From positions 1 to 16,143 of the IMG/VR virus record IMGVR_UViG_3300029373_000400: DNA of 16,143 nt; one strand, 5' to 3'. The notes beneath the pieces are model-generated. The model was not told the origin of the DNA, made no database searches, and saw only the letters and a list, made by a program, of their open reading frames with translations. Positions 1-16,143 of this stretch are shown in pieces; the stretch's first letter is position 1, and each line of letters starts with the position of its first letter. The translations under genes were made by a program, and so were the position numbers. Source of the stretch: a virus.

Positions 1-20
1 TTGCATAAATAAAAGAAAAA

Positions 21-293: not shown

Positions 294-301
294 GTGATGA
301 T

Positions 302-1248: not shown

Positions 1249-1257
1249 TAAACGCAT

Positions 1258-1284
1258 GAGGGGCAGAGATTGCCCCTTTTATAT
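1258..1284 (+). terminator. rho-independent terminator after the major tail gene
   Basis: Stem GGGGCA (1260-1265) pairs with TGCCCC (1271-1276), with a 5-nt loop GAGAT, followed by TTTT. Confidence 0.6.
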
Positions 1285-1310
1285 TTGTATTTAGAAAGTG
1301 AGGACTTTAA

Positions 1311-2038: not shown

Positions 2039-2040
2039 CA

Positions 2041-4863
2041 ATGGCAGAAAGTTTTAGTGTTGAAGCCATACTAACGGCAACCGATAAGAATATGACCTCA
2101 ACCATGAACAAAGCTATAGGAGCGTGTCAGTCGTTTGGTGATAGAGTTAAATCTATCGTTGCAGGTGTTGGTATAACTAAAGCTATTGGTGCAACGATGA
2201 ACGTTCTTAGCTCATCCTTTGATGGTGCTATTAATAGATTTGATACCATGCAATCCTATCCAAAAGTTATGAAGTCTTTGGGATTTTCAATTGAACAATC
2301 TCAAAAGAGTGTTGCAAAGTTAAATCAGTCAGTACAAGGCTTACCAACAAACTTGGCAGATGTTGTAACAACATCTAAGTCGTTGGCTGCCGTTACAAGT
2401 AATATTGATAAGGCAACTGATACTACAATTGCATTAAATCATGCGTTTTTAGCAAGTGGATCTAGTTCCGAAGATGCATCACGTGGCTTACAACAGTATT
2501 CACAGATGCTCGCTAAAGGGTCAGTAGATATGCAATCATGGAGAACCTTACAAGAAACAATGGCACCTGCATTGACTAAAGTATCTAAGAAACTAGGTAT
2601 TGCAAGTGGAGATGCAAACGAATTATATGAGGCCTTAAAGAATGGAACGATTACATTCGACCAATTCAATGATGCAATGATTGAATGTGATACAGAAACT
2701 GGTGGATTCGCAGAAACTGCATTAGAAGCTTCCAAAGGAATCAAAACATCTATGACTAACATCAAGAGTGCAGTACAAAACTTAGAACAAGGGTTCTTGT
2801 CTGCAATGAATAACATGTTGAAGTCAAAAGCCATGGGTGGATTAGTTGATAATCTAGAAAAGATTAAATCTAAAATCTATGAGTTTAGAAATTCAATCAT
2901 GGAAACCAAAGATGATGGATTAACATGGGATTTCAAGCCAGGAGTTATGGAAAATGTATCAAAAGCTATGGATTGGCTTGCAGATAGAGCAAACAATGCT
3001 AAAGCTATGGTCCAACAATTCTATGATGGATTTATGAAGACAGATGCAGTACAAAACGCAATTACATTGTTCGACAAAGTCAAAGATGCTATTGGAAATG
3101 TAATGGATAAGTTGCAAGACAGTAAAGTCTTTGAGCAGTTAGGAGAAGATATTGGAAATATCATTGCAAAAGTAGAAGATGTAACTGGCAAAATTGCAGA
3201 TTTCATAGCAAATCTTAAAACGGAAGATGTTAAGAGATTTGCAAGTGCAGTCAAATTATTGGCAGGAGCATTTGTTGCAATCAAAGTCGGTAGCAAAGTA
3301 TCTACTATGATTAGTGGTGTCGTTGGCACGGCTAAAGGTGGATATTCAAAGTTAAAATCAATTATTGACAAAATCAGAGGATTAGGAGAAAAACCAACTC
3401 AAGAAATACCTGGACAATTACCACAAAATGGTACTCCAAGTGACGGTATTGGTGATGCAACAATGCGAACTGCTCAGAAAACATCTAAAGCTGCACAGAT
3501 TATTAATTCTGCATTTGAAGGGATTTCAAATGTTATTTCTTCAGTATGTGAAGGTGTAAAGGGAATCATCACAGGTCTAGGAGAAGCCATCAGCACTGCA
3601 TTTCAAGGTATCGGACAAGGCATTAAATCGGCTTTAGAAGGAGTCGGTACAGTTATTGAATCGTTTGGTACTGCAATCAGTACGGTAGCACAAGGTATTG
3701 GACAAGGTTTAGCAACTGCATTTACAGGATTAGGAACTGCAATTGCAATGGTGCCACCTACTACATGGCTTGCGTTGGCAGCAGCTATTCTTGCGACTGG
3801 TGCTGCAATGGCATTGGTTGGATCACAAGGTGAAGGCTTGCAAATGGTTCTTCAGGGTGTTGCAGATGTTGTTTCTGCGTTTGGACCTGTTATCAAAGAA
3901 GTGTTTGAAGGTATCAGTGGTGTAATTACATCATTTGGTGAAACAGTAAGTGGAATCTTAAACTCAGTATCAGGAGTGATTAAATCTATTGGACAATCTG
4001 CTTTGAATGCTGGTAAAGGATTTAAAGAATTAGCTAAAGGTATTCAGATTATTACTGGTTTAAATTTGTTTGATATGGGAGCTAGCTTAGCTGCAGTTGC
4101 AACAGGTATAGGAGCTATATCTGCAGCTTCTGTAGGCATAGGAAGCGCTGGTACTCAGATGATGGCTCTTGTAACTGCTATAAGTATGGTAGGTACTACA
4201 TTTGCCAGTACATCGGCTACAGTGACAAACTCATGCAATAACATTATCAGTGCAATGTCTGCAGCAGAAGCTAGGGCTTCGAGTTCAGGAACTGCAATGG
4301 GTACTAAGTTTACATCAGGACTAAAAGGTAGTTTATCAAGAAGTGTGTCAATAGCACGATCTTCATGCAATAACATAATCAGTGCATTCAATGCGTGTCA
4401 GTCAAAAGCACAATATTGTGGTCAGATGATTGGTCAAGGATTGGCAAATGGTTTAAGAGCTAGTGAAGGTGCTGTTAGAGCAGCGGCCGCTAGTTTAGCA
4501 GCTGCTGCGGATGCCGCAATTCAAGCTAAAGCGAAAATCGGTTCTCCGTCTAAAGTTACTAAGAAAGATGGTATGTGGACTGGAAAAGGCTATGTTCTAG
4601 GTCTTGAATCCATGTATTCTGACGTAAAAAGAGCTGCAGAGAAGTTATTATACCTTCCACTAATGAGCACTCCTAAAATGGCTTTTGGAGGTGTTGTGAG
4701 TGATATGAATGCAGAATACGATTACACTAGCAACGCTCAATTAACGGTTGAAACACCACTTTACATTAATGATCGTGAATTTGCACGTGCAACATATAGA
4801 GCAAATCAGAATGAGATTAACAGAAACTCAAAGCTTAACGAGAGATTGCGAGGTAACAGATAA
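2041..4863 (+). CDS. tail tape measure protein
   Basis: 940 aa with a strong SD (AAGGAGGG) and the position after the chaperone pair. It has a long helical N-terminal half, a Gly/Ala-rich hydrophobic repeat region (GIGQG.. motifs) and an internal duplicated module. Its stop overlaps the next start (TAATG). Confidence 0.9.
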   Translation: MAESFSVEAILTATDKNMTSTMNKAIGACQSFGDRVKSIVAGVGITKAIGATMNVLSSSFDGAINRFDTMQSYPKVMKSLGFSIEQSQKSVAKLNQSVQGLPTNLADVVTTSKSLAAVTSNIDKATDTTIALNHAFLASGSSSEDASRGLQQYSQMLAKGSVDMQSWRTLQETMAPALTKVSKKLGIASGDANELYEALKNGTITFDQFNDAMIECDTETGGFAETALEASKGIKTSMTNIKSAVQNLEQGFLSAMNNMLKSKAMGGLVDNLEKIKSKIYEFRNSIMETKDDGLTWDFKPGVMENVSKAMDWLADRANNAKAMVQQFYDGFMKTDAVQNAITLFDKVKDAIGNVMDKLQDSKVFEQLGEDIGNIIAKVEDVTGKIADFIANLKTEDVKRFASAVKLLAGAFVAIKVGSKVSTMISGVVGTAKGGYSKLKSIIDKIRGLGEKPTQEIPGQLPQNGTPSDGIGDATMRTAQKTSKAAQIINSAFEGISNVISSVCEGVKGIITGLGEAISTAFQGIGQGIKSALEGVGTVIESFGTAISTVAQGIGQGLATAFTGLGTAIAMVPPTTWLALAAAILATGAAMALVGSQGEGLQMVLQGVADVVSAFGPVIKEVFEGISGVITSFGETVSGILNSVSGVIKSIGQSALNAGKGFKELAKGIQIITGLNLFDMGASLAAVATGIGAISAASVGIGSAGTQMMALVTAISMVGTTFASTSATVTNSCNNIISAMSAAEARASSSGTAMGTKFTSGLKGSLSRSVSIARSSCNNIISAFNACQSKAQYCGQMIGQGLANGLRASEGAVRAAAASLAAAADAAIQAKAKIGSPSKVTKKDGMWTGKGYVLGLESMYSDVKRAAEKLLYLPLMSTPKMAFGGVVSDMNAEYDYTSNAQLTVETPLYINDREFARATYRANQNEINRNSKLNERLRGNR

Positions 4864-6389
4864 TGTATGCATTCGTAAATACAGTAAATAGTGGCATCGT
4901 CGGTACTAATCTACCGACAGAAGCCATGTCATATAATGGCGTATATTTAGAAAATGAAATAGATGGATATCGTACACTTTCTGTAACAGGACGTGAGTTG
5001 ATGGAATCAGAAGTAAAACATACTGAAATTGATGGAATGGATGGTTCTTATTACAGATATAAAACAACTCCTGCAAGAACGATTACTGTTAAATATCAGT
5101 TGAGAGCTAGAGGAAGCAGAGAATTTCGAGACGCGTATAACAAGATGAATAAATTGTTGAGTGGCGAACAAGTAAAAGTCATTTTTAATGATGAAAGCGA
5201 CAAGTATTTCATTGGAACTAAGACATCTAACACACAAGTTGATGGCGGAAGTAATAACGTGATCGGTGAAATCGAAATCTATTGCTCAGACCCATGCAAA
5301 TATTCAACCACAGAAAAAGAATTTACTGATACTGATGGAGTGTTAAACATTGTCAATGAAGGAACTGTACCTGTAAGTATTGATTATGAGGTTCAGACAA
5401 CATCTGAAACCGGATATATTGGTATCGTATCAACTGAAGGTGTCATGCAGTATGGCAAAATTGAAGAATTAGATGGCGAAACATATCAGAACAGTGAATG
5501 TTTAGCTACAATCGATAGTTTTTATAATTGCGCAGATGATAAAAGTGGAACAGATATAATGCATCCACAGTACGGCGCTAATGGAACTTGTGCTAAAAAA
5601 AGTTGGTTTGGTCAAAACTTTCTAGGCTTTGGAACAGTCGGAACAAAAAAGGGGGATGCTAGTGGTGGATTAAGAACGCTAGTAATACCTGCAGATTCAA
5701 ATGGAGATTCAAGTGGTGCACAGAACTTCTATTGTTATTTTCATTTGTTGTTTTATGCAGGACTTATGGGTCAGACTGGTGAAATGTGCATCAACTTCTT
5801 GACTGCAGATAACAAATTGATTTGTGGATGTAACTTTTATAAAACAGATACAGTCGGAAATACAGGTCACTATGAAATATGGGCGAATGGCAAGATGTTG
5901 AGAAATTGGAACTATACTACTTCTCATTTACAATCTCAAAATCCATGGTATTGGAATTGGGGACATTGCGATATCTTGAAAGAAGGCGGAAATATCCGCT
6001 TCTTCTATTACGGAGGATATTACAATTATTACATTCCAGAGATTTCAAATATGAAGTGTGCCAAGATTCAAGTTGCTTTCAAACAATGGGGTAATCGAGG
6101 TGGAAATCAATTGATGTCTATGATGGGATTTGATGTAATCAATTATTTCAAAAATAATGTATCAAAATGGAGAAACATCCCCAACAGATATCCTAATGGT
6201 ACAAAAATCACGATTGATGGCAAGTCATCTCATGTTTATGTGAATGGTATGGCTAGACCTCAAGATGAGGTGCTAGGAACTAAGTATTTTAAAGCACCAG
6301 TAGGAACTACAGAGATAAAGACTACGTGCTCAAGTTGGTCAAAATCGAAGCCGATAGTGAAAGCTAGAATAAGGGAGGCATGGTTATAA
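4863..6389 (+). CDS. distal tail protein (Dit), enlarged form with a C-terminal extension
   Basis: The N-terminal ~150 aa (YNGVYLENEIDGYRTLSVTGRE...ITVKYQL...KVIFNDESDKYFIG...IEIYCSDPCKYS) fit the siphovirus tail component / Dit fold pattern. The gene follows the tape measure. At 508 aa it is about twice the classical Dit length. Confidence 0.7.
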   Translation: MYAFVNTVNSGIVGTNLPTEAMSYNGVYLENEIDGYRTLSVTGRELMESEVKHTEIDGMDGSYYRYKTTPARTITVKYQLRARGSREFRDAYNKMNKLLSGEQVKVIFNDESDKYFIGTKTSNTQVDGGSNNVIGEIEIYCSDPCKYSTTEKEFTDTDGVLNIVNEGTVPVSIDYEVQTTSETGYIGIVSTEGVMQYGKIEELDGETYQNSECLATIDSFYNCADDKSGTDIMHPQYGANGTCAKKSWFGQNFLGFGTVGTKKGDASGGLRTLVIPADSNGDSSGAQNFYCYFHLLFYAGLMGQTGEMCINFLTADNKLICGCNFYKTDTVGNTGHYEIWANGKMLRNWNYTTSHLQSQNPWYWNWGHCDILKEGGNIRFFYYGGYYNYYIPEISNMKCAKIQVAFKQWGNRGGNQLMSMMGFDVINYFKNNVSKWRNIPNRYPNGTKITIDGKSSHVYVNGMARPQDEVLGTKYFKAPVGTTEIKTTCSSWSKSKPIVKARIREAWL

Positions 6390-9300
6390 TGGAAAATACA
6401 AGAATCGCAGTATTAACTCCTTATGACAAAGTTCTAACGTTTCTAGACAACACAGTAACTAGTTGTATGCATTATTTTGATGAAACATTGCATACATACT
6501 TGAAAGGCTCAGCATATACATTTGAATTCACTACATTGACTGCACATGATGATGCAGCCTTTTTAGTTGAGGGCAATAAATTAAGCTTTACTAGAAAGAA
6601 CAAAGGCTATTATTTAACGATTATGAATGTTGAAAAAGGTGGTGACACAACAAATGTTACCGCCTACGGCCTTTGCCTTGAATTAACGAATGAATATGTA
6701 GATGCATATAAAGCGCCTAGAGCGATGTCATTTGCAGAATATGTTAATGCGTATGGATTTGAACAATCGTTCGTAATTGGCAAGAATGAAGTATCAGACA
6801 AACGTATCACACATGAGTGGACTGGAAGTGATACTGTACTAGCTCGATTGTATTCAATCGCAAATGTATTTGATGCAGAATTAGAGTTCGTAACTCAATT
6901 GAATGACGATTATTCTTTGAAGAACTTTGTGTTGAATATTTACAGAGCTCATTCAGATTCCGTTCAAGGAATGGGAAGTGATAAGCGTAGCACGATCTTA
7001 AGATATCCTAATGATGTTTACGGAATCACTAAAACAAGTGATATTACAGAGTTGTATACAGGTATCAGACCTACGGGTAATAATGGGTTACAACTTAACT
7101 CGATTAGTGGCCGTGTTGTAAAAGATTCAAATGGAAATATTTTGTATAAAGTTCAAGGTAACAATATACTTGCACCTCAATCTAGAGATAGATTTCCTAG
7201 TACGTTATTAACAAATCATTCAAACGATATGTATGCAGTGCTAGTGTGGTCTTATGAAACTGAAAACGTTGAGACATTATACGGTCAAGCATTGGCTCAG
7301 TTGAAAAAGAATTGTGTTCCTAAAGTTACGTATGATGTAGATGCATATATTGATGCAGATATCGGTGATACGTTTACTATCGAAGATGCAGAATATAGTC
7401 CTACATTGTATTTAGAAGCACGAATAACGGAACAAGAGATTTGTTTCACGGATTCCGAGAAGTGCAAGACTATTTTTGACAACTTTGAAGAAAAGCAATC
7501 ACAGATTAGTTCAGCTCTGATCAGCGAAATGAACAAGATGATTGAATTGAAAAAAGTTTATGAAGGTTCAATCGTATCTTCAAATGGAGTTCTTTTTAAG
7601 ACAGATTCAGATTCAACCAAATTAACTGCATTGGTAAAGGATGATGGTGTTGATATTACATCTAAGTATTCAATTATTTGGTACAAAGACGATGTGCAAA
7701 TATCAACAAATCAAACTATCACAATTAGTGCATCAGACGTATCAGAAAAGGCCGTATATCGATTTAAAGCTTTGAGTGGTGAAATACTTAAAGCAAGTGC
7801 AGAAGTCACTGTAATGCGATTGCAAGATGGTCAGAATGGAACGAGTGCATATGTGCATATTGCCTATGCCAACAGTTCAGATGGGCAAGTTGATTTTAGT
7901 TTGACGGATTCAAATCGTAAATTTATTGGTCAGTATTCTGACTCAAAGCAATATGGTTCTTATGACCCAACCAAATACAGATGGTCGGCAATTAAAGGGG
8001 AAGATGGTCAGTCATTTGTGAGCGCCGAGGAACAGTTCTATTATTCTACATCTCAAACTGAATTAATCGGTGGTGAGTGGTTTGTTGGAAATGTGGTTTA
8101 TCAATCAGATAAGTTCTTATGGAAACGTTGGAAATGTACGTATGCCAATCCAAGTGAAATCAAGTACACGAAAGCTATTTTTGACAACACTTGGAATGAA
8201 ATTGATGCGAAAATCGGTGAGATTCACACTCAAGTGTCTCAAGCAAATGTGCAATCAAAAGAAGCAGTTGAAAAAGCAACACAAGCTCAGATAGATGCAA
8301 GTAAAGCAAATGAATTGGCAAATACCGCTAACACTCAATCAAGCGAGGCTAAGCAACTAGCACAAGATGCGAATACTAGCACTGGTAAAGCACAAGAACA
8401 GATTGATGCGATTAAAGGAGATATCAATGATTCAAAGCAACAGATTCAAGATGCAGTGGATAAAGCCAACGCAAACGCAAGTGAAATCGATACAGTAAAA
8501 GAAACATACGCTACAAAAGTTGATTTAACTACTGAATCAAAATCTATTCATGCAGATGTTACAACAGAAATTGAAAAGAAAGTTGGTGAATTGTCGACTA
8601 CTGTATCAGAAACTTATGCTTCTAAGAGTGATTTAACAAGCATTGAAGGTAGTTTAAATACCAAGATTAAACAAAATGCCGATTCAATCACGACTCAAGC
8701 AAGCTCGATTGAAAAGCTGCAGTCTGATACAACTCAAGCTAAGAAAGATATTACTGATGCGACTAAAAAAGCAACGGATGCTCAAACTCAAGCGGATAAA
8801 GCTTTAGGTAATGCTCAGAGTGCTCAAACTTTAGCAGACCAAGCTAAAAAAAAGGCAGACAGTGCACAATCAAATTTAGATAGCGCTAATAAAGAGTTGG
8901 CAGATGCAAAAGCTAATCTAGAAGCAGTGACTGGTAGAGTTGATGCGACTGAGAGCGAAATCACAAAAGCTCAAACACGTTTAACAAACGCAGAATCTGC
9001 AGTACAGAAAGCTCAGTCTGATGCAACTAAGGCTCAAGGTAACGCAACTACGGCAATCAATAATGCAAAGGCAGCTCAAGGAGTGGCGGATAATGCAAAG
9101 CAGAAAGCAGAACAAGCTCAAAAGGATTTGAACGCATTGACTAATCGAGTTACTACTGCAGAAACAACTATTAAGCAGAATAGTGATTCTATCAAATTAC
9201 AAGCAACTCAAATTACTGATACAGGCAAAAAGATTGATGATCTAAAAATTGGTGGAAGAAATTTACTATTACAATCCGGTCATTGGCAAAGCAAACCAAC

Positions 9301-10258
9301 TTGGTGGCGTGATAATGGCGGTGGATTAGAATTAGATACTGCAGTTAAATATAATGGATACAACACGATAAAAACAGTTGCCGGGAACGGTATTGTAGGG
9401 AATAATGGTAATTTTTTAGAAGTTGATATGAAAAAAACATATACATATTCTGCGTTGGTTAAAGTAGTTGAATCTGATTTTACTGAAGGGAATGTATTCT
9501 ATCCTTTGCATTTTCAAAGCAGCGATACTGCCGATGGTAAAACTTTTAGTTCTGATGTAACTTCTATATCTTATAGTCAAAACGCAAAAAAGGGTGAATG
9601 GACTTTAATATATACAACATTTATACCTAAGCATAAATATATCAGACCATTTGTATGGTTTGGAAGTAAAGATAGGACTTTTAATATTGCCTATCTAAAG
9701 CTTGAAGAAGGAAATAAGCCAACCGATTGGACTCCAGCTCCTGAAGATGTAGATGAAGCAATAAATACAGAACGTACTGAGCGACAGTCCGCAATTGAGA
9801 CTAAGGCAAATGAAATTACTTCAAAGGTTAGTGAAACTTACGTATCAAATTCGGCTTTGAATCATTATAAAGAAGAAGTATCTACTCAGTTTAGCCAAAC
9901 TAAGAGCGATTTTACGTGGTCAATTAATCGAAGCGTGACCGATGCTAAAAATGAAATGAATGGTCAAATCAGCAGTGTGAATGGTAGATTGGATGGTTTA
10001 AAACAAACTGCAGATAACGTAAATAGTTATATGTCTTTTGATAACGATGCATTGACTTTAGGTAAATCAGACAGTGCATTTAAAACTAAGATTACAAACC
10101 AAGAATGGTCGATTCAAAAGAATGGTGCAAAGGTAACATATATAAACGATCAAACAATGTACATTACAGATGGACAATTTACGCAGTCTTTAAAAGTTGG
10201 TGCATTTGGATTCGTTCCAAGAGCTAATGGCTCTTTAGATTTCAAGAAAGTAGGGTGA
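6389..10258 (+). CDS. tail-associated tip protein (Tal-like minor structural protein) with coiled coil and CBM-like module
   Basis: The ORF is open from ATG 6380, but GGAGG at 6374-6378 is better spaced for ATG 6389, which overlaps the Dit stop as TAATG. The N-terminal ~380 aa resemble the phage minor structural protein / prophage tail endopeptidase N-terminal region. The motif YVHIAYANSSDGQVDFS is present, followed by a long Ala/Gln/Lys-rich coiled coil. The module ending LKLEEGNKPTDWTPAPEDV is typical of Gram-positive phage tail tips. Confidence 0.75.
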   Translation: MENTRIAVLTPYDKVLTFLDNTVTSCMHYFDETLHTYLKGSAYTFEFTTLTAHDDAAFLVEGNKLSFTRKNKGYYLTIMNVEKGGDTTNVTAYGLCLELTNEYVDAYKAPRAMSFAEYVNAYGFEQSFVIGKNEVSDKRITHEWTGSDTVLARLYSIANVFDAELEFVTQLNDDYSLKNFVLNIYRAHSDSVQGMGSDKRSTILRYPNDVYGITKTSDITELYTGIRPTGNNGLQLNSISGRVVKDSNGNILYKVQGNNILAPQSRDRFPSTLLTNHSNDMYAVLVWSYETENVETLYGQALAQLKKNCVPKVTYDVDAYIDADIGDTFTIEDAEYSPTLYLEARITEQEICFTDSEKCKTIFDNFEEKQSQISSALISEMNKMIELKKVYEGSIVSSNGVLFKTDSDSTKLTALVKDDGVDITSKYSIIWYKDDVQISTNQTITISASDVSEKAVYRFKALSGEILKASAEVTVMRLQDGQNGTSAYVHIAYANSSDGQVDFSLTDSNRKFIGQYSDSKQYGSYDPTKYRWSAIKGEDGQSFVSAEEQFYYSTSQTELIGGEWFVGNVVYQSDKFLWKRWKCTYANPSEIKYTKAIFDNTWNEIDAKIGEIHTQVSQANVQSKEAVEKATQAQIDASKANELANTANTQSSEAKQLAQDANTSTGKAQEQIDAIKGDINDSKQQIQDAVDKANANASEIDTVKETYATKVDLTTESKSIHADVTTEIEKKVGELSTTVSETYASKSDLTSIEGSLNTKIKQNADSITTQASSIEKLQSDTTQAKKDITDATKKATDAQTQADKALGNAQSAQTLADQAKKKADSAQSNLDSANKELADAKANLEAVTGRVDATESEITKAQTRLTNAESAVQKAQSDATKAQGNATTAINNAKAAQGVADNAKQKAEQAQKDLNALTNRVTTAETTIKQNSDSIKLQATQITDTGKKIDDLKIGGRNLLLQSGHWQSKPTWWRDNGGGLELDTAVKYNGYNTIKTVAGNGIVGNNGNFLEVDMKKTYTYSALVKVVESDFTEGNVFYPLHFQSSDTADGKTFSSDVTSISYSQNAKKGEWTLIYTTFIPKHKYIRPFVWFGSKDRTFNIAYLKLEEGNKPTDWTPAPEDVDEAINTERTERQSAIETKANEITSKVSETYVSNSALNHYKEEVSTQFSQTKSDFTWSINRSVTDAKNEMNGQISSVNGRLDGLKQTADNVNSYMSFDNDALTLGKSDSAFKTKITNQEWSIQKNGAKVTYINDQTMYITDGQFTQSLKVGAFGFVPRANGSLDFKKVG

Positions 10259-10262
10259 TTGA

Positions 10263-12122
10263 ATGGCAGAATTTAGTGGAAGTATACAAATCACAAGTGG
10301 TGAATGGGGAAAATATTCCATCATATTAAGATGCTCGGAAGATTCTTACTCAATAGAAAATAACACTTCTCGTGTATATTGGTGGGTTGGTATCCGTTCA
10401 AATACTCAATATCACAATCACCAAGGATTGAGCGAACACTATAAAGTGGTAGTGAATGGTTCAACAGTACACGATGCTAACCATACAGTTTCGTGTGGTA
10501 GTGGCAAAACTGTTGGAATCGCAGATGGATATACAACAGTATCGCACAATGCAGATGGTTCTAAATCAATCAGTGCTAGTGCATCATTTAGTTGTGGCAA
10601 TACAAGTTATTACGCACCTCGAACTGGTTCTTGCAGTGGTACAGTTAAATTGACAACTATTCCAAGAGCATCAAGCATATCTATTGATAGCCCTAGTATT
10701 GAATGTGGTAACACTATTAATATTAATGGTTCGAGTGCTTCAAAGAACTTTACGCATAAAATCTATGCAACATGGAATGGTAAAACAAGTGAATTAACAA
10801 CGATAAGTGGGACATTAACACCCACTTTTTCTTATACGATTCCTACCGCATGGGAAAAGGATTTGCCTAACTCGACAAGTGGAATTGTTACTTTTACATT
10901 AGAGACATTCAGTGGTTCAACATCGGTCGGTTCTAAGTCGGTAAATGCGACTATCAAAGTCAGAAGCAGTGTTGTTCCTTCGATTGACAGTATCAAAGTA
11001 ACAGATGCAAACTCAGTATGTGCAGGCATTGGTCAAATAGTTCAGTCACAGTCTAGACTGAAGTTTGCAATAACTTACAGTGGTGCGCAAGGTTCAACTG
11101 TTACATCTGTATCAACCAAATTTGAAGGACAAACATACAATGGTAGTTCATTTACAACTGGTATTGTACGAGGCAGTGGTAGCATTACCTATACAACAAC
11201 GATCTATGATTCACGTGGTAGAAGTTCACAAATTAGTGGCAAAGTAACTGTATCTGCATATAGTTCACCTAGCTTAACGAATGTGACTGCAAGACGTGCT
11301 AACTCAAGTTATACAGTTGATGAAGCAAGTGGAACGTATGCGTTATTGCACTTCAAAGTAGGATTTACTAGTTTAACTGGTAAGAATGTGACGTCATTCT
11401 ATATCCAATATCGAGCTAGTGGAGCTAGTTCATGGACGAAAATAAATTCATGGGATAACAACTATACTCTTGAGCAAGACTACAAAGCAGGTAATTTATT
11501 TACATCCGCAACAAATTCTTATGAAGTGGCATTCGGTGTTAAGGATAAGTTCATGAATGACTACTCATGGCAAATCTTTACTGTAGCACCTACTTACTCG
11601 TTAATTAACTTTGGTAAAGATGGAAGATCATTAACGTTCTTTGGTCAAGATGCTAATCAAAAAGATACGCTAACAGTATTAGGTGATATTGTAGCTCCTA
11701 TTTTCTTGAACAAGATATTTCCAGTTGGTGCGGTATATATTACATATGACAACAACAATCCAGGCAACTTCTTAGGTGGTACATGGGAGCAGTTTGGACA
11801 AGGTCGAACTTTGGTCGGAGAAGGTACTGGAAACGATGGTAGTACAAGTATGTCCTTTACAACCGAATCTACGGGTGGAGAGTATAGGCACAAGTTATCA
11901 ACAGATGAGATGCCTAGCCATAATCACAGAATACCAGACCAAGCTGATGACAATAGTTCTTTTAAAACATACGATTGGGGAGATCCTATGCTTCTAGGAA
12001 CTAAAAGAGCAACTAAAAACAAAGGCTATTGGTGGTCTATAACCGAATATGTGGGAGGTAGTAAATCACACAATAACTTACAGCCTTATGTTGTCACTTA
12101 TTTTTGGAGGCGTGTTAATTAA
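10263..12122 (+). CDS. tail fibre / baseplate receptor-binding protein, currently fused to C-terminal variant A
   Basis: 619 aa, the last structural gene. The N-terminal part has repeated beta-rich Ser/Thr modules reminiscent of DUF859-type siphovirus proteins (from memory, needs an HMM search). The C-terminus (FPVGAVYITY...GGTWEQFGQGRTLVG...GGEYRHKLSTDEMPSHNH...HNNLQPYVVTYFWRRVN) matches the Firmicute phage baseplate-protein / tail-collar-like tip domain. Confidence 0.75.
   Translation: MAEFSGSIQITSGEWGKYSIILRCSEDSYSIENNTSRVYWWVGIRSNTQYHNHQGLSEHYKVVVNGSTVHDANHTVSCGSGKTVGIADGYTTVSHNADGSKSISASASFSCGNTSYYAPRTGSCSGTVKLTTIPRASSISIDSPSIECGNTININGSSASKNFTHKIYATWNGKTSELTTISGTLTPTFSYTIPTAWEKDLPNSTSGIVTFTLETFSGSTSVGSKSVNATIKVRSSVVPSIDSIKVTDANSVCAGIGQIVQSQSRLKFAITYSGAQGSTVTSVSTKFEGQTYNGSSFTTGIVRGSGSITYTTTIYDSRGRSSQISGKVTVSAYSSPSLTNVTARRANSSYTVDEASGTYALLHFKVGFTSLTGKNVTSFYIQYRASGASSWTKINSWDNNYTLEQDYKAGNLFTSATNSYEVAFGVKDKFMNDYSWQIFTVAPTYSLINFGKDGRSLTFFGQDANQKDTLTVLGDIVAPIFLNKIFPVGAVYITYDNNNPGNFLGGTWEQFGQGRTLVGEGTGNDGSTSMSFTTESTGGEYRHKLSTDEMPSHNHRIPDQADDNSSFKTYDWGDPMLLGTKRATKNKGYWWSITEYVGGSKSHNNLQPYVVTYFWRRVN
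11848..11860 (+). repeat. crossover core A (GTATGTCCTTTAC) inside the fibre gene
   Basis: Read directly from the sequence. It spans codons S-M-S-F-T (aGT ATG TCC TTT ACa) of the 619-aa ORF and is identical to core D on the opposite strand. Confidence 0.7.
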
Positions 12123-12435
12123 TCCTCTTCCAAAGATATACGACAATATAAGGTTGTGTAATATCGAAAGACTTATTTCCACCATTTGATGTTATACGCC
12201 ATCCATACTGCGTCGTAGAATCATCTCCTACAAATCTATTTTCTGAATAAGGTTTTATTCCATATTTATCTTTTGAAACAACTCCAATGGCATCTCCGTA
12301 AAGTCCATTGTTATCCCAAAGATAATGGTTCGTTGGAACAATGGCAGGCATCATGCCGATAATATAATTTGGAATGTTTTCTCTTGATAAACATTTCTTA
12401 TAAAAACCGCCTGTTTGCTTGGCAGTATATGACAT
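12115..12435 (-). CDS. silent fibre C-terminal cassette B (106 codons, no SD or promoter)
   Basis: It begins MSYTAKQTGGFYKK, which aligns with MSFTTESTGGEYRHK of the fibre, and ends QPYIVVYLWKRIN versus QPYVVTYFWRRVN. It is convergent with the fibre gene end and overlaps it by 8 bp. No usable SD lies upstream. Confidence 0.7.
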   Translation of the reverse strand: MSYTAKQTGGFYKKCLSRENIPNYIIGMMPAIVPTNHYLWDNNGLYGDAIGVVSKDKYGIKPYSENRFVGDDSTTQYGWRITSNGGNKSFDITQPYIVVYLWKRIN

Positions 12436-12437
12436 AC
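12425..12437 (-). repeat. crossover core B (reads GTATGTCATATAC on the - strand)
   Basis: Read directly; 11 of 13 bases are identical to core A. Its ATG is the first codon of cassette B, in the same phase as in core A. Confidence 0.6.
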
Positions 12438-12454
12438 CTTTATATTTAGCTTAT

Positions 12455-12467
12455 GTATGTCTTTTAC
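12455..12467 (+). repeat. crossover core C (GTATGTCTTTTAC)
   Basis: Read directly; 12 of 13 bases are identical to core A. Its ATG is the first codon of cassette C, in the same phase. Confidence 0.65.
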
Positions 12468-12735
12468 GGCCACTAATACATATGGAAAATACAAGCACCT
12501 ACATAGTTCAGGTTCACTAGGAGTGCCAGCAACTTCTATTGCTGGTGGAGGAGGATTTGATTATATTGAAGTGAATACCGGACTAGGTGACTACAATACG
12601 AGTCATAGATTAAATGCTTCTATAAGTAAAACATCAGGCAAGCATACTGTAAGAATGCCTGTTGACGGAAACACTTATACTAGTAGCTCATTACAACCTT
12701 GCATATGTGTTTATTTTTGGAAAAGAATTAAATGA
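12457..12735 (+). CDS. silent fibre C-terminal cassette C (92 codons, no SD or promoter)
   Basis: It begins MSFTATNTYGKYKH and ends LQPCICVYFWKRIK. Its start lies within core C and there is no SD upstream. Confidence 0.7.
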   Translation: MSFTATNTYGKYKHLHSSGSLGVPATSIAGGGGFDYIEVNTGLGDYNTSHRLNASISKTSGKHTVRMPVDGNTYTSSSLQPCICVYFWKRIK

Positions 12736-13021
12736 TTCTCCGCCAAAAGAATACACATATCGATGGTTGTAATGTACTAGCATTTCCTAAATCACCGATA
12801 ATACCAGCTCCATATTCTGTATCACTAGCTGTATAGGATTTGTTTTTTGCACCGCCCACAAACCAATCGGGCTTCCAATAGTGATTTGTGTATTTAGGTT
12901 TAATGGCTATACCAGTACTATCCAAAGCTGCACAATAAAGATAATTTACTTGTGCAATTAAATCTCCAACACTATGCGTATGTGTATACTTTCCGTAATG
13001 TTCGTTTGAAGTAAAGGACAT
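12728..13021 (-). CDS. silent fibre C-terminal cassette D (97 codons from the core ATG)
   Basis: From the core ATG (13021-13019 on the - strand) it reads MSFTSNEHYGKYTHTH...LQPSICVFFWRRII. The 11 extra N-terminal codons in the ORF track (from 13054) run into the recombinase gene and are taken as an ORF-calling artefact. Confidence 0.7.
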   Translation of the reverse strand: MSFTSNEHYGKYTHTHSVGDLIAQVNYLYCAALDSTGIAIKPKYTNHYWKPDWFVGGAKNKSYTASDTEYGAGIIGDLGNASTLQPSICVFFWRRII

Positions 13022-13023
13022 AC
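13011..13023 (-). repeat. crossover core D (reads GTATGTCCTTTAC on the - strand)
   Basis: Read directly; all 13 bases are identical to core A in inverted orientation. It lies 2 bp from the recombinase stop codon (13026-13028). Confidence 0.7.
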
Positions 13024-13025
13024 AT

Positions 13026-13919
13026 TTACTTGTAATATTCACAAAGTAGCTCAACGCATTTTCTTTTCAATTCCATTTGTGGGTGGACATAAATATTCAT
13101 GGTTATCGACACGTTTGAGTGACCAAGTAACTCACTCAGCGATTTGTAGTCACATCCGCATTCAATACATCTTGTAGCGAATGTGTGACGGAGTGCGTGG
13201 AATTTACGATGTGGAAGCTCAAGGTCTTTCAATATTCGGTTGTAGTAAAGCCTATATTTATTAGGCTCTATCGGTTTATCTCGATTTGTTAATACATAGT
13301 TATTTTCTTCGCCTTGAAGAAGTATTGCATAGTGCATTATCCAACTATTGAGTGGAATCATCCGAGTACTAGAGCGTGATTTAGGTGGAGTAATGTGTAA
13401 TTGGCTACCATCTTCTTTGGTGTATGTTCGTATCATGGTTTTATCTATTTTTAACAATTTGGTTTGAGTGTTTATATCAGACCATTTCAAAGCGCATAGT
13501 TCACCTATGCGTATTCCAGTGTGGATGCATAAAAGGATTCCAAAGTTTTTACAGTTTATCTCAGATTGGAGGTGATTAATTAATGAAACTTGATGCTCTT
13601 TTTCAAAAATCTCTACCGCCGTAGGAGGATGGTAAGGTAACTGAACATCGACTTTGAACGGAAGTGTAAATTTAAGAATTTGGATAATGTCTTTGGCATA
13701 TTTAAACGATATGCCACCTTTTCCATCTTTACGACCATTTTCAAGTTTTTGAAGAATCATTTCCTGAAGAATATCATTGTTCAGTTCCTCGATTTGATAA
13801 CTGCCAAGTGATGGCAGTATGTGATTGTGGATCACATTACAATAATTTGTGTAAGTGCTGTATTTTAGATAGATTTTCTTTTCTTTTAACCAAGAATGTA
13901 ATTTGTCAGAATATAGCAT
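13026..13919 (-). CDS. tyrosine site-specific recombinase (XerC/D-sized, phage integrase family), candidate shufflon invertase
   Basis: 297 aa with an N-terminal SAM-like core-binding pattern. The catalytic signature is visible: TGIRIGEL (Arg I), PKSRSSTRMIPL (Lys hairpin), HALRHTFAT (His-x-x-Arg) and LGHSNVSITMNIYVH (His/Tyr nucleophile). SD GAGGT lies upstream on the - strand. Confidence 0.9.
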   Translation of the reverse strand: MLYSDKLHSWLKEKKIYLKYSTYTNYCNVIHNHILPSLGSYQIEELNNDILQEMILQKLENGRKDGKGGISFKYAKDIIQILKFTLPFKVDVQLPYHPPTAVEIFEKEHQVSLINHLQSEINCKNFGILLCIHTGIRIGELCALKWSDINTQTKLLKIDKTMIRTYTKEDGSQLHITPPKSRSSTRMIPLNSWIMHYAILLQGEENNYVLTNRDKPIEPNKYRLYYNRILKDLELPHRKFHALRHTFATRCIECGCDYKSLSELLGHSNVSITMNIYVHPQMELKRKCVELLCEYYK

Positions 13920-13957
13920 TTTTGTTTACCTCGCTTTTTTTATATTAATAGGAGGAT

Positions 13958-13985
13958 TTTATATGACTAAGGTTCATGAAATCAA
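13958..13985 (-). promoter_or_regulatory. possible sigma-A type promoter for the recombinase gene
   Basis: The - strand reads TTGATT, then 16 nt, then TATAAA, roughly 40 nt upstream of the recombinase ATG. This is a by-eye match only. Confidence 0.25.
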
Positions 13986-14211
13986 TTTAAATACAAAGTT
14001 ATGGAATTTCTTTACGGAACATGACTTTATTATTCTTGATTTGACAGATAAACAAATCAATGAACAAGATTACGTGTTATTCAAACAAGTGTCTTTAGAT
14101 GAAGGAAAAGAAACTGATACAGGTTTGTTTAGAATGACACAAATTCGTAGCATCACAACTAACGATGGTTTCAAAGATGGTTATGTGATGTTAAACGTAA
14201 CTAAATTATAG
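13963..14211 (+). CDS. small hypothetical protein, possibly ASCH/DUF3850-like
   Basis: AGGAGGA at 13950-13956 is correctly spaced for ATG 13963, so the 13903 start in the ORF track (which overlaps the recombinase start) is unlikely. The pattern HEINLNTKLW.F......FIILDL....QDYVLFKQ...TG....MTQIRSI....GFKDGYVMLNV loosely recalls DUF3850. Confidence 0.4.
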   Translation: MTKVHEINLNTKLWNFFTEHDFIILDLTDKQINEQDYVLFKQVSLDEGKETDTGLFRMTQIRSITTNDGFKDGYVMLNVTKL

Positions 14212-14218
14212 ATATTGC

Positions 14219-14244
14219 GGAGTCTAGAAATAGGCTCTTTTTTA
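14219..14244 (+). terminator. rho-independent terminator
   Basis: Stem GGAGTCTA (14219-14226) pairs with TAGGCTCT (14231-14238), including G-U pairs. The loop is GAAA and a T-run follows. Confidence 0.5.
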
Positions 14245-14267
14245 ATAAGTCTAATAGGAGGATCAAT

Positions 14268-14540
14268 ATGAATTTAGATTTTACACAAGTTACAAATTAT
14301 TTTGTTTTAGTTGTTTTGGTAGCGTGCTTAGTTGTCGGATATATTTTAAAAACATCATTTACAAGTTTCCCTAATAAATATATTCCAACAGTGCTTGCTT
14401 TAATTGGAATGACATTAAATCTAGCGGTATCAGGTCTTTCAATTGAAAGTGCCGTATATGGAGCGGTGATGGGATTGGCATCTACCGGACTGCATCAGGC
14501 ATTTACACGTTTCATTGAAGGCAAACACGAAGATGAATAG
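14268..14540 (+). CDS. holin (Hol44 / phage_holin_5-like)
   Basis: 90 aa with SD AGGAGG, hydrophobic helices and a charged C-terminal tail (KHEDE). The NKYIPTVLALIGM motif is recalled from Hol44-type holins. It lies upstream of the endolysin. Confidence 0.75.
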   Translation: MNLDFTQVTNYFVLVVLVACLVVGYILKTSFTSFPNKYIPTVLALIGMTLNLAVSGLSIESAVYGAVMGLASTGLHQAFTRFIEGKHEDE

Positions 14541-14551
14541 GGTGTTGGATT

Positions 14552-14950
14552 GTGGAAGAAGTAATTAGATCAATCCAACTATTCTTAGTAATATGTGGTG
14601 GTGTTATCACAATCGGTGGTGCTTATAAGGTATTTCAAGATTGGCAAAAACCAAATAAAGATTTAAAAGCGATGGTTCTAAGACATGACGAATTGTTAAA
14701 ACAAGACAACGATAGAATTAAAAATATCGAAAAGTTAGTCATTTCACAAGAAGGTTTAAGTAATAAGCTAAATGAACACACTCGCATTTTATCTGAACAC
14801 GATAATCGTCTTGATGAAGATAAAGAAAGAAGTAATTTATTGCTTAAAGCAAATATTGCAATCTTGAATGGTCTGTTATCAGATGCAGATAAAGAAAAGC
14901 TAGTCGAAACTAGAAATGAAATTCAAGATTTTTTAGTAGAAAAAAATTAG
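14552..14950 (+). CDS. membrane-anchored coiled-coil protein of the lysis cassette (function unknown)
   Basis: GTG start with a weak SD (GGGTG). It has one N-terminal transmembrane helix (IQLFLVICGGVITIGGAY) followed by a charged helical region, and sits between the holin and the endolysin. Confidence 0.5.
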   Translation: MEEVIRSIQLFLVICGGVITIGGAYKVFQDWQKPNKDLKAMVLRHDELLKQDNDRIKNIEKLVISQEGLSNKLNEHTRILSEHDNRLDEDKERSNLLLKANIAILNGLLSDADKEKLVETRNEIQDFLVEKN

Positions 14951-15048
14951 GAGGAAAGAAATATAGAAGAAAAAGAAGTAAAATTTGAAGAATTATCAGA
15001 AGAAGCTCAAACAGAATTGAGTAATGGTAAAGAAGAAGGTGAAGAAGA

Positions 15049-16143
15049 ATGTCATATTCAAGCTTAGCAAATAAATATATTCCTGCTAGTGCAGATAACT
15101 ATATGCGTGGTCGTGGAGGATATAAGATTTGTAAAATCACACCTCATCACATGGCTTGCAAATGGACCGCAGAACGATGCGCTCAGTCATTCCAAGTAAG
15201 CGGAAGAATGGCTAGCGCAAACTATTGTATTGGTTCAGATGGTACTATCGTTGCAAATGTTGACGAAGAGAATCGTGCATGGACATCATCAAACTACTAC
15301 AACGATTGCCAATCAATTACAATTGAAATTGCTAATGATAATACAGATACGTGGACAATCTCACCAAAAGCATGGAATGCATTAGTAAATCTATGCGTGG
15401 ATGTATGTAAACGATATGGATTCAGATTGAATTATACTGGTGACTCAACGGGTAGTTTAACAGAGCATAGAATGTTCGCAGCTACATCTTGCCCAGGCCC
15501 TTATTTACATTCGAAAATGCCTCAATTAGCACAAGAAGTAAATGCTAGATTGGATGGTCAAACTGTAGCACCAAGTGCTCCAAGTACTCCAAACACTCCA
15601 AGTGATGAGAAGTATTCAGTCGGTATACCTATCTGCACAAATACATTAAGCGTTAACTGCTACGGAACTTCTAAAATTGTAAAAGGTGATTGGAGTGGTT
15701 CTATTGGCAGAGTCATTAAAGGTGCTAAATATCCGTATCGAGTAGACCGTAATGGTGTAGCGATTGGATGGACTAATGATGCTGGTATTGATACAGACCC
15801 TCACACACCAGTTGGAGCAACACAGTCTAGTGCAGAAGCTATCGACCAAATCTTGCATGAAGGTAGCTATGTTACATCTGTGCATATGAAGATTGGTAAT
15901 CAAGGCTTGAAAAAGATTGGTGATGATTTATGTGCTTATCTTGCTCAATTAGGCGGTTGGTTTCCAATTCGTTTAGTCGACAAAGTACCTAATTCAGATG
16001 GATATAATGACAATGTATTGCATACCACAAATGCAGTAGTCTATGTATCTCGAATCAGAGTCGATGCAGTGAATGCTCAAAAGAATATTGTTAAAATTGG
16101 CGGTATTTGGGTTGACCCAACACCATTAACAGAAATTGCATAA
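15049..16143 (+). CDS. endolysin: N-acetylmuramoyl-L-alanine amidase (Amidase_2/PGRP fold) with a C-terminal wall-binding region
   Basis: The N-terminal ~165 aa carry ITPHHMA, ANYCIGSDG, EENRAWTSS and TEHRMFAATSCPGPY (the zinc-ligand His/His/Cys pattern of Amidase_2). A Pro/Ser/Thr linker (APSAPSTPNTPS) precedes a ~180-aa beta-rich C-terminal region. The ORF ends with TAA at the window end. Confidence 0.9.
   Translation: MSYSSLANKYIPASADNYMRGRGGYKICKITPHHMACKWTAERCAQSFQVSGRMASANYCIGSDGTIVANVDEENRAWTSSNYYNDCQSITIEIANDNTDTWTISPKAWNALVNLCVDVCKRYGFRLNYTGDSTGSLTEHRMFAATSCPGPYLHSKMPQLAQEVNARLDGQTVAPSAPSTPNTPSDEKYSVGIPICTNTLSVNCYGTSKIVKGDWSGSIGRVIKGAKYPYRVDRNGVAIGWTNDAGIDTDPHTPVGATQSSAEAIDQILHEGSYVTSVHMKIGNQGLKKIGDDLCAYLAQLGGWFPIRLVDKVPNSDGYNDNVLHTTNAVVYVSRIRVDAVNAQKNIVKIGGIWVDPTPLTEIA

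Follow-up and report, generated by a model that had tools for sequence, protein, structure and literature searches.

A probable shufflon in the tail protein gene of a gut Erysipelotrichaceae prophage, with the exchange point placed within a 7-bp sequence

IMGVR_UViG_3300029373_000400 is a viral sequence record of 16,143 nt, and the whole of it (positions 1–16,143) is referred to here as the window. The host is a gut member of the Erysipelotrichaceae, and the phage is a prophage with a siphovirus tail protein. The open reading frame at positions 10263–12122 displays similarities to Pfam DUF859 (1.9e-41), to Gp10_C over residues 482–618 (6.2e-24), to the PHROG 372 tail protein family (5e-78) and to T4 gp10 (PDB 2FKK, E = 1.7e-4). 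The 3′ end of this gene lies in an array of small open reading frames and short repeated sequences, and a tyrosine recombinase gene follows the array. The features are:

10263–11847, + strand: constant part of the tail (receptor-binding) protein gene, codons 1–528 and the first two bases of codon 529
11842–11860, + strand: site A, the expressed site (left arm GTACAA 11842–11847, spacer GTATGTC 11848–11854, right arm CTTTAC 11855–11860)
11848–13023, no strand: whole rearranging region, two convergent cassette pairs (11848–12437 and 12455–13023), each bounded by inverted cores
11850–12122, + strand: cassette A, 90 aa, at present fused to the constant part (expressed form)
12115–12435, − strand: cassette B, 106 aa, silent, converging on cassette A
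12425–12443, − strand: site B (right arm 12425–12430, spacer 12431–12437, degenerate left arm 12438–12443, ATAAAG as read on the − strand)
12438–12454, no strand: head-to-head spacer of 17 bp that contains the left arms of sites B and C
12449–12467, + strand: site C (degenerate left arm GCTTAT 12449–12454, spacer 12455–12461, right arm TTTTAC 12462–12467)
12457–12735, + strand: cassette C, 92 aa, silent in the window
12728–13021, − strand: cassette D, 97 aa from the core ATG, silent in the window
13011–13029, − strand: site D (right arm 13011–13016, spacer 13017–13023, perfect left arm GTAAAT 13024–13029)
13026–13919, − strand: tyrosine recombinase of 297 aa, the presumed invertase (Pfam Phage_integrase 4e-28, Phage_int_SAM_3 3e-11)

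The array is thus formed by a constant part, one expressed cassette and three silent C-terminal cassettes, with the sites oriented +, −, +, −. The constant part takes in the N-terminal third of a head domain of the T4 gp10 C-terminal type, and the part exchanged is the C-terminal two-thirds of this receptor-binding head domain. The stop codons of cassettes A and B lie within an 8-bp overlap, and the last 35 residues of cassette B show a weak match to Gp10_C.

The 13-bp core pattern GTATGTCNNNTAC has four exact matches in the window, at 11848–11860 (+), 12425–12437 (−), 12455–12467 (+) and 13011–13023 (−), and an exact search of the whole 16,143 nt shows none elsewhere. The chance expectation is 0.02 matches, and four were reached in 0 of 200 shuffles. 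A preliminary description of this DNA had listed these four cores at the same positions, with cores A and D identical, and the search agrees with it in positions and sequences. It had also described the ATG at core positions 3–5 as codon-aligned, and the open reading frames bear this out at all four cores: the ATG is codon 530 of ORF 10263–12122 at core A, the first codon of ORF 12115–12435 (−) at core B and of ORF 12457–12735 (+) at core C, and is in frame with ORF 12728–13054 (−) at core D. The translations at cores A, B, C and D are GSTS|MSFT, MSYT, MSFT and MSFT, respectively.

The 297-aa recombinase combines a catalytic domain with a SAM-like domain for core binding, and lacks both an arm-binding domain and a C-terminal extension. 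Its best structural match is Tn1549 Int (PDB 6EMY, 1.1e-16). On alignment with this protein, which extends to residue 291, all catalytic residues are intact (R137, K180, H241, R244, H267 and Y277), and 20 residues follow the catalytic tyrosine (residue 277 of 297). The stop codon of the gene is 2 nt from core D, and the left arm of site D overlaps its last codon and stop codon. The lysogeny integrase is a different gene: a separate 319-aa integrase is found at the prophage end, adjoining host rnhB. The cell also contains this second tyrosine recombinase and the host Xer proteins, which counts against a firm assignment of the sites to the 297-aa enzyme. A protein search gave at least 120 recombinases with ≥70% identity, nearly all from metagenome assemblies. 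A megablast search of GenBank phages with the locus gave no match. The best GenBank phage recombinases are only 36%–38% identical, and theirs are not tail shufflons; in these the recombinase gene itself lies between perfect inverted repeats of 24–29 bp.

The anatomy of the sites was taken from a family logo of related loci. There are 149 sites in 68 related sources, with the consensus GTAWAD | GTATGTC | HTWTAC. The 7-mer is invariant, the cassette-side arm HTWTAC is near-invariant, and the outer arm GTAWAD is degenerate. Each site can accordingly be read as about 19 bp, with an invariant asymmetric 7-bp spacer between two inverted arms of 6 bp. Site D reads GTAAAT GTATGTC CTTTAC, so its left arm is perfect. 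In the silent sites of relatives, 28 distinct left flanks give the counts G 20, T 23, A 18, A 14 and A 28, followed by a position that is never C, and this mirrors the right arm. The mirror symmetry is centred on GTATGTC: the A at −2, present in 4/4 window sites and 28/28 of these flanks, pairs with the T at +9, and the “not C” at −1 pairs with the “not G” at +8.

The statement in the preliminary description that similarity disappears immediately on both flanks does not hold. On the outer side there is the A at −2 and a tendency to GTAA at positions −6 to −3. On the cassette side a weak similarity goes on past the core (MSFT..GG.Y.H.S ... LQPY.V.YFWRRI, 28%–40% identity), because the cassettes are homologous proteins. 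The alignment of related loci that it had proposed has served to define the arms GTAWAD and HTWTAC from 68 loci, and the proposed search for further copies gave 143 occurrences of the motif in 580 kb of related loci, every one within a shufflon and none outside.

Related loci have 2–8 sites each and 1–8 cassettes, with the same head-to-head arrangement of 17–18 bp, and tandem direct cassettes are kept in many of them. In every related locus of sufficient extent the recombinase gene stands directly after the last site, and the sites are associated exclusively with this gene. Two single-site loci (L012 and L040) have lost the silent cassettes, and in these the recombinase is cut to its first 68 residues. 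Some related phages differ by clean inversions bounded by cores (L027 versus L029; L010 versus L038 and L058).

Rearranged natural forms are present in public contigs of the same phage, i.e. contigs with an identical recombinase protein and 99.6%–100% DNA identity. In L073 the segment 12455–13023 (C to D) is inverted, and in L071 both segments are permuted (99.6%–100% identity); here the 17-bp spacer 12438–12454, which moves and flips as a unit, is inverted between the two segments. With L and R standing for the left flank and the cassette side of a site, the recombined junctions in these contigs are LA-RC, LA-RD, LB-RA, LC-RD, LD-RC and LD-RB, and LA is found joined to RA, RC and RD. Cassette C is in the expressed position (LA-TTT-RC, giving a 621-aa tail protein) in L071 and L076, and cassette D (LA-CTT-RD) in L100. 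Cassette A is a silent stand-alone frame behind LB in L071, L081, L083, L084 and L091, and cassette B is behind LD in L070, L071, L075, L085, L091 and L092. Tail proteins of 619 and 621 aa are called in the same-phage contigs, with cassette A or C fused. The in-frame fusions foreseen in the preliminary description thus occur in nature as LA-RC and LA-RD.

These junctions also place the exchange point. The bases at core positions 8–10 are CTT with RA, ATA with RB, TTT with RC and CTT with RD, regardless of the left flank. In 10/10 L-R junction types, positions 8–13 stay with the cassette and the left flank is swapped. The five informative recombinant types all agree (LA-TTT-RC, LD-TTT-RC, LC-CTT-RD, LB-CTT-RA and LD-ATA-RB). 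Since positions 8–10 follow the cassette, the exchange takes place between −1 and +8, inside GTATGTC. Recombinant junctions had been proposed earlier as the means of placing the exchange within the core, and the public contigs have provided them; GTATGTC, suggested then as the overlap region, agrees both with the travel of positions 8–13 and with the mirrored 6-bp arms.

Several contig ends fall at the same place. L077 and L078 end after GTATGTC, exactly at 13017, the boundary of spacer and right arm in site D; L084–L086 and L103 begin at G1 of a core; and a MAG has a 10-N gap directly after a core. L107 (571 bp) and L108 (569 bp) consist of the C to D segment alone, L108 being 12455–13023 exactly, in 5 samples, and L107 the same with 2 additional nt. 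Of the 67 IMG/VR stretches, 18 end 13/14, 55 or 99 nt past a core start; such ends would be consistent with assembly break points and are used as support only. One sample (ERZ27301849) contains two states, LD-RB (L085) and LD-RC (L104). A metagenome scan with LD plus the spacer yielded one contig, which was already known. As these are short-read contigs, the long-range order of cassettes may be a chimeric walk through a mixed population, and only the junctions are safe, because the k-mers that span them exceed the 13-bp core in length. A junction shared by different samples may go back to a few old events and need not mean that switching is frequent.

The four cores are, with high probability, the crossover sites of a shufflon (a multiple-inversion system) by which the C-terminal ends of a siphovirus tail protein are exchanged. 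The general features of a shufflon are found here: at least three short sites in both orientations, an adjoining tyrosine recombinase gene, a constant 5′ part with alternative 3′ cassettes in frame, and rearranged forms with breakpoints at the sites. A point against the reading is the size of the conserved arms, since 6 bp is little for a tyrosine recombinase. In the proposed mechanism the 297-aa recombinase would bind to both arms, cut the DNA where they meet the spacer and swap strands within the spacer, and recombination of two oppositely oriented sites would invert the DNA between them. As the spacer is in codon phase (xGT ATG TCx), every inversion involving site A would join the constant part to another cassette with the reading frame preserved (...GSTS|MSFT...). 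Cassettes oriented like site A would be reached through successive inversions. A lysogen population and the phage released from it would then carry a mixture of up to four tail tips, presumably of different receptor specificities, and host range may change with them.

Other explanations of the sites can be weighed against these data. The exchange region might be shifted to the right, with GTA and TAC as inner arm ends and TGTCNTT (core positions 4–10) as the overlap. There is indeed a small dyad GTA...TAC around seven bases of the 13-mer, and among the relatives at large the base at position 8 does not follow the cassette (it differs in 46% of pairs of the same cassette). In the 68 related sources this base is linked neither to cassette nor to locus (within-locus similarity test 1921/5000), so that it gave an ambiguous placement of the crossover and the same-phage contigs decided instead. 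This uncoupling is unexpected over long times if the crossover lies strictly to the left of position 8, unless the base drifts. However, sites that differ at positions 8 and 10 (CTT, ATA and TTT) do recombine, and their products keep the cassette partner's positions 8–10 without exception, whereas inclusion of these bases in the overlap would give heteroduplex and mixed outcomes or block the exchange. With the flank symmetry centred on GTATGTC as well, the register GTA | TGTCNTT | TAC is rejected as highly improbable. Still less credible, to the point of being nearly negligible, is conservation of the 13-mer solely for the MSFT peptide of paralogous cassettes, with the rearrangements put down to general homologous recombination or to long-standing differences between strains. 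Homology among the cassettes and a conserved peptide encoded by the core speak for it. But even synonymous positions do not vary (TTC never replaces TTT, and G never occurs at position 8), and both the GT that precedes the ATG and the A at −2 persist even in sites with a non-coding left flank. All breakpoints are in the same 7 bp, 13 bp is below the needs of RecA-type exchange, and in every locus of sufficient length a recombinase gene borders the terminal site. It is somewhat easier to conceive, though very unlikely, that the sites are real but serve a trans-acting enzyme, either the 319-aa prophage integrase or a recombinase of the host, and that the 297-aa protein has some other role. Invertases acting in trans are described (Mpi in Bacteroides, and a second locus in PMC6109161), and the prophage does have a second tyrosine recombinase. 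Against this, the 297-aa gene directly adjoins the terminal site and has its stop codon inside the best left arm, the catalytic residues of the protein are all intact, and the loci with a truncated gene are those without silent cassettes.

The enzyme may not be specific for inversion: direct sites may also be its substrates, with excision and perhaps integration of the cassette pairs between them. Two-cassette forms and the varying number of cassettes would then be accounted for, and this is a possibility to be kept in mind although the balance is against it. L070, L075 (with 11 similar contigs) and L076 read LA-[A..B]-LD and LA-[C..D]-LD, relatives have 2–8 sites, and the enzyme has no counterpart of the C-terminal domain that is credited with the inversion bias of Rci. 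But both two-cassette contig types are also exactly what bubble-popping would yield if the window and L071 states were mixed, and tandem direct cassettes persist in many relatives. L070, L075 and L076 are therefore withdrawn as direct-site deletions. A wider version, in which the 19-bp site and a Cre-sized recombinase also excise and re-insert cassette pairs both within a genome and between co-resident phage genomes, giving an integron-like pool shared across lineages, is rather improbable. Cassettes with 90%–98% identity are found on tail genes whose constant parts are only about 55%–60% identical, and prophage remnants show a deletion endpoint exactly at core A, there with the hybrid spacer GTGTGTC; a search for a native partner of this remnant junction found none. 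These two observations, the 1–8 cassettes per locus and the two-cassette contigs are consistent with a shared pool.

Under the shufflon reading, the closest known system in kind, which the preliminary description had not named, is the Rin shufflon of Bifidobacterium (and Eggerthella) prophages (Mavrich et al. 2018, PMC6109161; PMC8778435). Both are systems of temperate siphoviruses of gut bacteria, with a receptor-binding protein gene that has a constant N-terminal part, several promoterless C-terminal cassettes in both orientations, and a short asymmetric repeat heading each cassette. Both have an arm-less, XerD-sized tyrosine recombinase that flanks the array and is distinct from the lysogeny integrase (PMC6109161), the same layout (constant part Rc, variable cassettes Rv, then the invertase), and rearranged forms between related genomes. 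They differ in host (Bacillota, Erysipelotrichaceae, here versus Actinomycetota), in site (GTATGTCNTTTAC here versus rix TTCCCTAACCC) and in domain (T4 gp10 C-terminal type on a DUF859 protein versus TP901-1/1358-like or H-type lectin); the likeness is one of layout and kind. A search for rix TTCCCTAACCC at ≤1 mismatch gave 0 matches. The kind of system is thus already known, and what this example adds is the mapping of the exchange point to 7 bp from public metagenome sequence alone; such a mapping, with definition of the dyad arms, was not found for rix in the passages of the Rin literature consulted.

The R64/IncI shufflon (Rci, sfx) is likewise a tyrosine-recombinase multiple-inversion system with a conserved 7-bp spacer, a conserved cassette-side arm and a variable other arm, and a choice among C-terminal ends of an adhesin-like protein (PMC11852207). 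The sfx site has a 12-bp variable left arm, the 7-bp spacer and a 12-bp conserved right arm, and Rci has an additional C-terminal domain credited with the inversion bias (PMC11852207). The resemblance to sfx proposed in the preliminary description therefore stands for the 7-bp spacer and the one conserved arm (PMC11852207); the other arm here is degenerate yet mirrored, and not unconserved. The present system also differs in its conserved arms of 6 bp (12 bp in R64), in its 297-aa enzyme without an Rci-type extra C-terminal domain, and in its target, a siphovirus tail protein rather than the PilV pilin (pilV) of a conjugative type IV pilus. Compared with the inversion-only behaviour of R64, two-cassette contigs are seen here, which are explicable as collapsed assembly bubbles.

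The phage-borne inversions of Gin (Mu), Cin (P1), Min (p15B) and Pin (e14) also swap the C-terminal part of a tail fibre and so the receptor specificity, and Min acts on a multi-segment shufflon too. These enzymes are serine invertases with sites of about 26 bp, a 2-bp crossover and a Fis-dependent enhancer. In contrast, the recombinase beside the present array is of the tyrosine type only, and a scan of the surrounding ORFs found no serine recombinase gene. The hsdS shufflons of type I restriction-modification systems (for example in Streptococcus pneumoniae, SpnD39III, and Mycoplasma pulmonis) use a tyrosine recombinase. They share with the present locus the Bacillota setting and a small tyrosine recombinase gene beside inverted repeats in coding sequence, with in-frame exchange of specificity domains. 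What they vary is the specificity subunit of a methylase and not part of the virion, and their repeats are usually longer shared coding stretches, compared with the 13-bp island here (for context see PMC9881135).

Programmed host-range switching may be common in the phages of gut Erysipelotrichaceae, a little-studied group of phages, because at least 120 recombinases are ≥70% identical and the site with its left flank is found in 67 viral contig stretches. With a small site (7-bp spacer, 6-bp arms) and a 297-aa enzyme without the Rci C-terminal domain, the system would be a compact candidate for synthetic shuffling and barcoding, in which Rci homologues have been used so far (PMC11852207). Short-read assemblies break exactly at the core, and this affects the reconstruction and annotation of such phage genomes and their tail genes.

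The window spans the part of a siphovirus that encodes tail and lysis functions. Genes for a tape measure, a distal tail protein and a 1292-aa tail-associated protein are followed by the open reading frame 10263–12122, and holin and endolysin genes lie beyond a tyrosine recombinase gene. An exact search of the 16,143-bp window finds GTATGTCNNNTAC four times (chance expectation 0.02; none of 200 shuffles gives four copies). The four cores agree in sequence with those listed in the preliminary description, and its observation that the ATG at core positions 3–5 is always codon-aligned is confirmed, as this ATG is in frame in 4/4 open reading frames:

11848 (+), core A; its ATG is codon 530 of the 619-aa open reading frame 10263–12122
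12425 (-), core B; its ATG is the first codon of open reading frame 12115–12435 (-)
12455 (+), core C; its ATG is the first codon of open reading frame 12457–12735 (+)
13011 (-), core D; its ATG is in frame with open reading frame 12728–13054 (-)
12115–12122, stop-codon overlap of cassettes A and B (TTAATTAA)
12728–12735, stop-codon overlap of cassettes C and D
13026–13919 (-), 297-aa tyrosine recombinase, adjoining core D, with its stop codon 2 nt from the core

The 10263–12122 open reading frame has the Pfam domains DUF859 and Gp10_C, the latter at residues 482–618, and its C-terminus matches the T4 gp10 C-terminal domain (2FKK, E = 1.7e-4). Core A is situated about one third of the way into this gp10-type domain. 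Each of the open reading frames that start at core B, C or D encodes a diverged homologue of the final 90 tail-protein residues. These cassettes show 28%–40% identity and are conserved at both ends (MSFT..GG.Y.H.S and LQPY.V.YFWRRI). The coding sequence of the conserved C-terminus (YFWRRI) accounts for the long imperfect inverted repeats I1 and I2. The cassettes form two convergent pairs, A/B and C/D, with an 8-bp stop-codon overlap in each, and thus each invertible unit is a tightly packed pair of ~570–590 bp.

Contigs of the same phage were collected with the recombinase protein, which is recorded exactly in 58 blocks of public assemblies, and with the cassette open reading frames. These are 99.6%–100% identical to the window and display other arrangements. 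In contig L073 the segment 12455–13023 is inverted relative to the window. In contig L071 both segments are exchanged and the internal spacer is flipped, a state three inversions away from that of the window. Sites were classed by their 20-nt left flank (L) and 30-nt right flank (R), such that LA-RC denotes the left flank of site A joined to the right flank of site C. Ten junction types were found: LA-RA, LA-RC, LA-RD, LB-RB, LB-RA, LC-RC, LC-RD, LD-RD, LD-RC and LD-RB. Core positions 8–10 follow the right flank without exception (RA CTT, RB ATA, RC TTT, RD CTT), and the final base of the left flank also varies between sites. The exchange point therefore lies inside GTATGTC, to which it is confined at the finest resolution that sequence comparison gives. 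The 7-mer had been proposed as the overlap region of a tyrosine recombinase, and the placement of the exchange from these ten junction types supports that proposal.

It should be noted that in short-read assemblies the junctions alone are safe, as the order of cassettes over distances above ~500 bp may be chimeric. Two-cassette contigs are also present: L070, L075 (with 11 similar ones) and L076 read LA-[A..B]-LD and LA-[C..D]-LD. They may reflect deletion between direct sites but do not count as proof of it, because they match both bubble-popping paths predicted from a mixture of the window and L071 states.

Different junctions are also found within one sample, e.g. LD-RB (L085) and LD-RC (L104) are both present in ERZ27301849. 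Several contigs break exactly at the cores. L077 and L078 stop at window position 13017, i.e. after LD and GTATGTC, while L084–L086 and L103 start at G1 of a core. L108, a 569-bp contig identical in 5 samples, is exactly 12455–13023, and L107 is the same with 2 additional nt. Among the 67 IMG/VR stretches described below, 18 stop 13/14, 55 or 99 nt past the core start, among other short distances. The single genome match, an Erysipelotrichaceae MAG, shows a scaffold gap of 10 N immediately past the core. Such breaks would be expected where reads join one flank to several partners, and may reflect frequent switching or a mixture of strains. The title of this one MAG points to Erysipelotrichaceae as the host. 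In the prophage contigs L069 and L074, the element sits between the host genes dprA-topA-trmFO and rnhB-ylqF-lepB-rplS.

The 297-aa recombinase shows a Pfam Phage_integrase match (4e-28) and an N-terminal SAM-like domain. Among solved structures, the best match is to Tn1549 Int (1.1e-16; alignment up to residue 291), and the catalytic residues are R137, K180, H241, R244, H267 and Y277. It has neither an arm-binding domain nor a C-terminal extension. In every related locus that extends far enough, the last site is in minus orientation and is followed by the recombinase gene. Loci L012 and L040 have one site each, and their recombinase is reduced to the first 68 residues. The 297-aa enzyme probably acts on the sites. 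The prophage carries a separate 319-aa integrase beside rnhB (L069, L074), and thus the 297-aa enzyme is not the lysogeny integrase. The closest GenBank relatives, 36%–38% identical, are encoded on the human faecal phage scaffolds L097 (MT835594.1) and L098 (MT837341.1). There the recombinase gene itself lies between perfect 24–29-bp inverted repeats (L097 1576–2996, L098 1063–2502) with no adjoining tail cassettes, as if it were the passenger of an invertible or mobile segment.

A DNA-level search of GenBank phages gave no similar locus. IMG/VR was scanned with the constant flank and core (GGTAGTACAAGTATGTCNNNTAC), which returned 67 stretches, and across these the flank/core junction leads into many different cassettes. 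In all, 149 sites were found in 68 sources, with up to 8 sites per locus; the cassettes are 66–108 aa long and form 47 clusters at 85% amino acid identity. One and the same cassette can be silent or expressed, depending on the contig. Exact reciprocal states are seen in L027 versus L029, and in L010 versus L038 and L058, where the core-to-core DNA is inverted and the flanks are collinear. Copies of the motif without cassettes would speak against the proposed role of the cores; in 580 kb of related loci all 143 copies are within shufflons and 0 are outside, so that no such evidence against the interpretation was found.

In silent sites the 7-mer GTATGTC is invariant. Position 8 is C, A or T and never G. 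T is invariant at position 9 and only rarely replaced, by A, at position 10; at position 12, A rarely gives way to G. On their left, silent sites are flanked by sequences of unrelated origin, i.e. the recombinase gene end, a preceding cassette's stop codon, or a 17–18-bp head-to-head spacer. Base preferences are present nonetheless in 28 distinct left flanks: G at -6 (20/28), T at -5 (23/28), A at -4 (18/28), A or T at -3 (14/28 and 12/28) and A at -2 (28/28), with C never found at -1. The right arm read toward the spacer is G, T, A, A, A, “never C”. From these preferences the site is GTAWAD, GTATGTC, HTWTAC, an asymmetric 7-bp spacer between two 6-bp inverted arms; the arm toward the cassette is near-perfect and its counterpart degenerate. 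The outer fixed sites of the window have good left arms (A, GTACAA; D, GTAAAT) and the internal-spacer sites have poor ones (B, ATAAAG; C, GCTTAT). Across the wider family, same-cassette pairs differ at position 8 in 46% of cases, compared with 12% at other third-codon positions.

This asymmetric site resembles the arm-spacer-arm layout of R64 sfx, as had been suggested in the preliminary description; sfx sites consist of a variable left arm of 12 bp, a spacer of 7 bp and a conserved right arm of 12 bp (PMC11852207). However, the inversion bias in R64 is credited to the C-terminal domain of Rci, and the 297-aa enzyme has no such domain. The system thus works like the R64 shufflon but is outside that family. 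The Rin shufflon, described from Bifidobacterium prophages by Mavrich et al. 2018 (PMC6109161), combines a constant part of a receptor-binding-protein gene with variable cassettes for the C-terminus. Its rix sites are 11 bp long (TTCCCTAACCC), and its tyrosine invertase is arm-less and separate from the integrase. This architecture is common to both systems, but the site differs (a search of the present system for rix gave no match), as do the receptor-binding domain and the host phylum. A similar locus is reported in Eggerthella lenta prophages (PMC8778435). A non-exhaustive literature search found no account of the present system in Bacillota phages. This kind of system is already known, and the present shufflon is a new example. 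It is of interest for how often it occurs in gut metagenomes, for the compactness of both site and enzyme, and because public sequences placed its crossover with unusual directness.

In L072 and L099 (one contig, ERR12454753) the constant part continues through GTAT of core A and is then fused to AGCCATTAAACC, which lies 99 nt into cassette D, i.e. window position 11851 is joined to about 12910 (-). At this junction cassette D reads TAGTACTGGTAT followed by AGCC, and site A reads TAGTACAAGTAT followed by GTCC. The product is an in-frame tail protein of 589 aa in which the first ~33 cassette residues are missing. This has the appearance of a secondary-site exchange. L069, L074 and L082 are prophage remnants with most of the phage absent (the region lies at about 4760–4835 on the reverse complement of L069). 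Their homology to the window begins exactly at core A (11848); in the remnants this core is GTGTGTCCTTTAC, preceded by an unrelated flank close to the 319-aa integrase. The remnants may represent a deletion between core A and a pseudo-site; a search for the partner site of this junction did not find one.

Some silent cassettes have variant cores with TGC for TAC (MSFA or MSYA): L015 487-, L042 841+, L046 487-, L066 596-, and L034 and L060 631-. These may be decaying sites. In L066, where the variant is the sole second site, a recombinase homologue was looked for within 12 kb and not found.

Loci L015, L034 and L060 have cassettes 90%–98% identical to those of L044, L026 and L049, whereas the upstream 870 nt are only ~55%–60% identical. 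The similarity starts ~150 nt before the expressed core, where the gp10-type head domain begins, and thus the head domain together with its cassettes appears to be exchanged between different tail-protein stalks. In L070, ~72 nt are absent relative to window 10811–10872, an in-frame 24-aa deletion in the constant part that gives a tail protein of 595 aa versus 619 aa in a phage otherwise 99.9% identical. In L071, an IS110-family transposase gene (133–1347) lies just past the endolysin gene, at the prophage end, in one sample.
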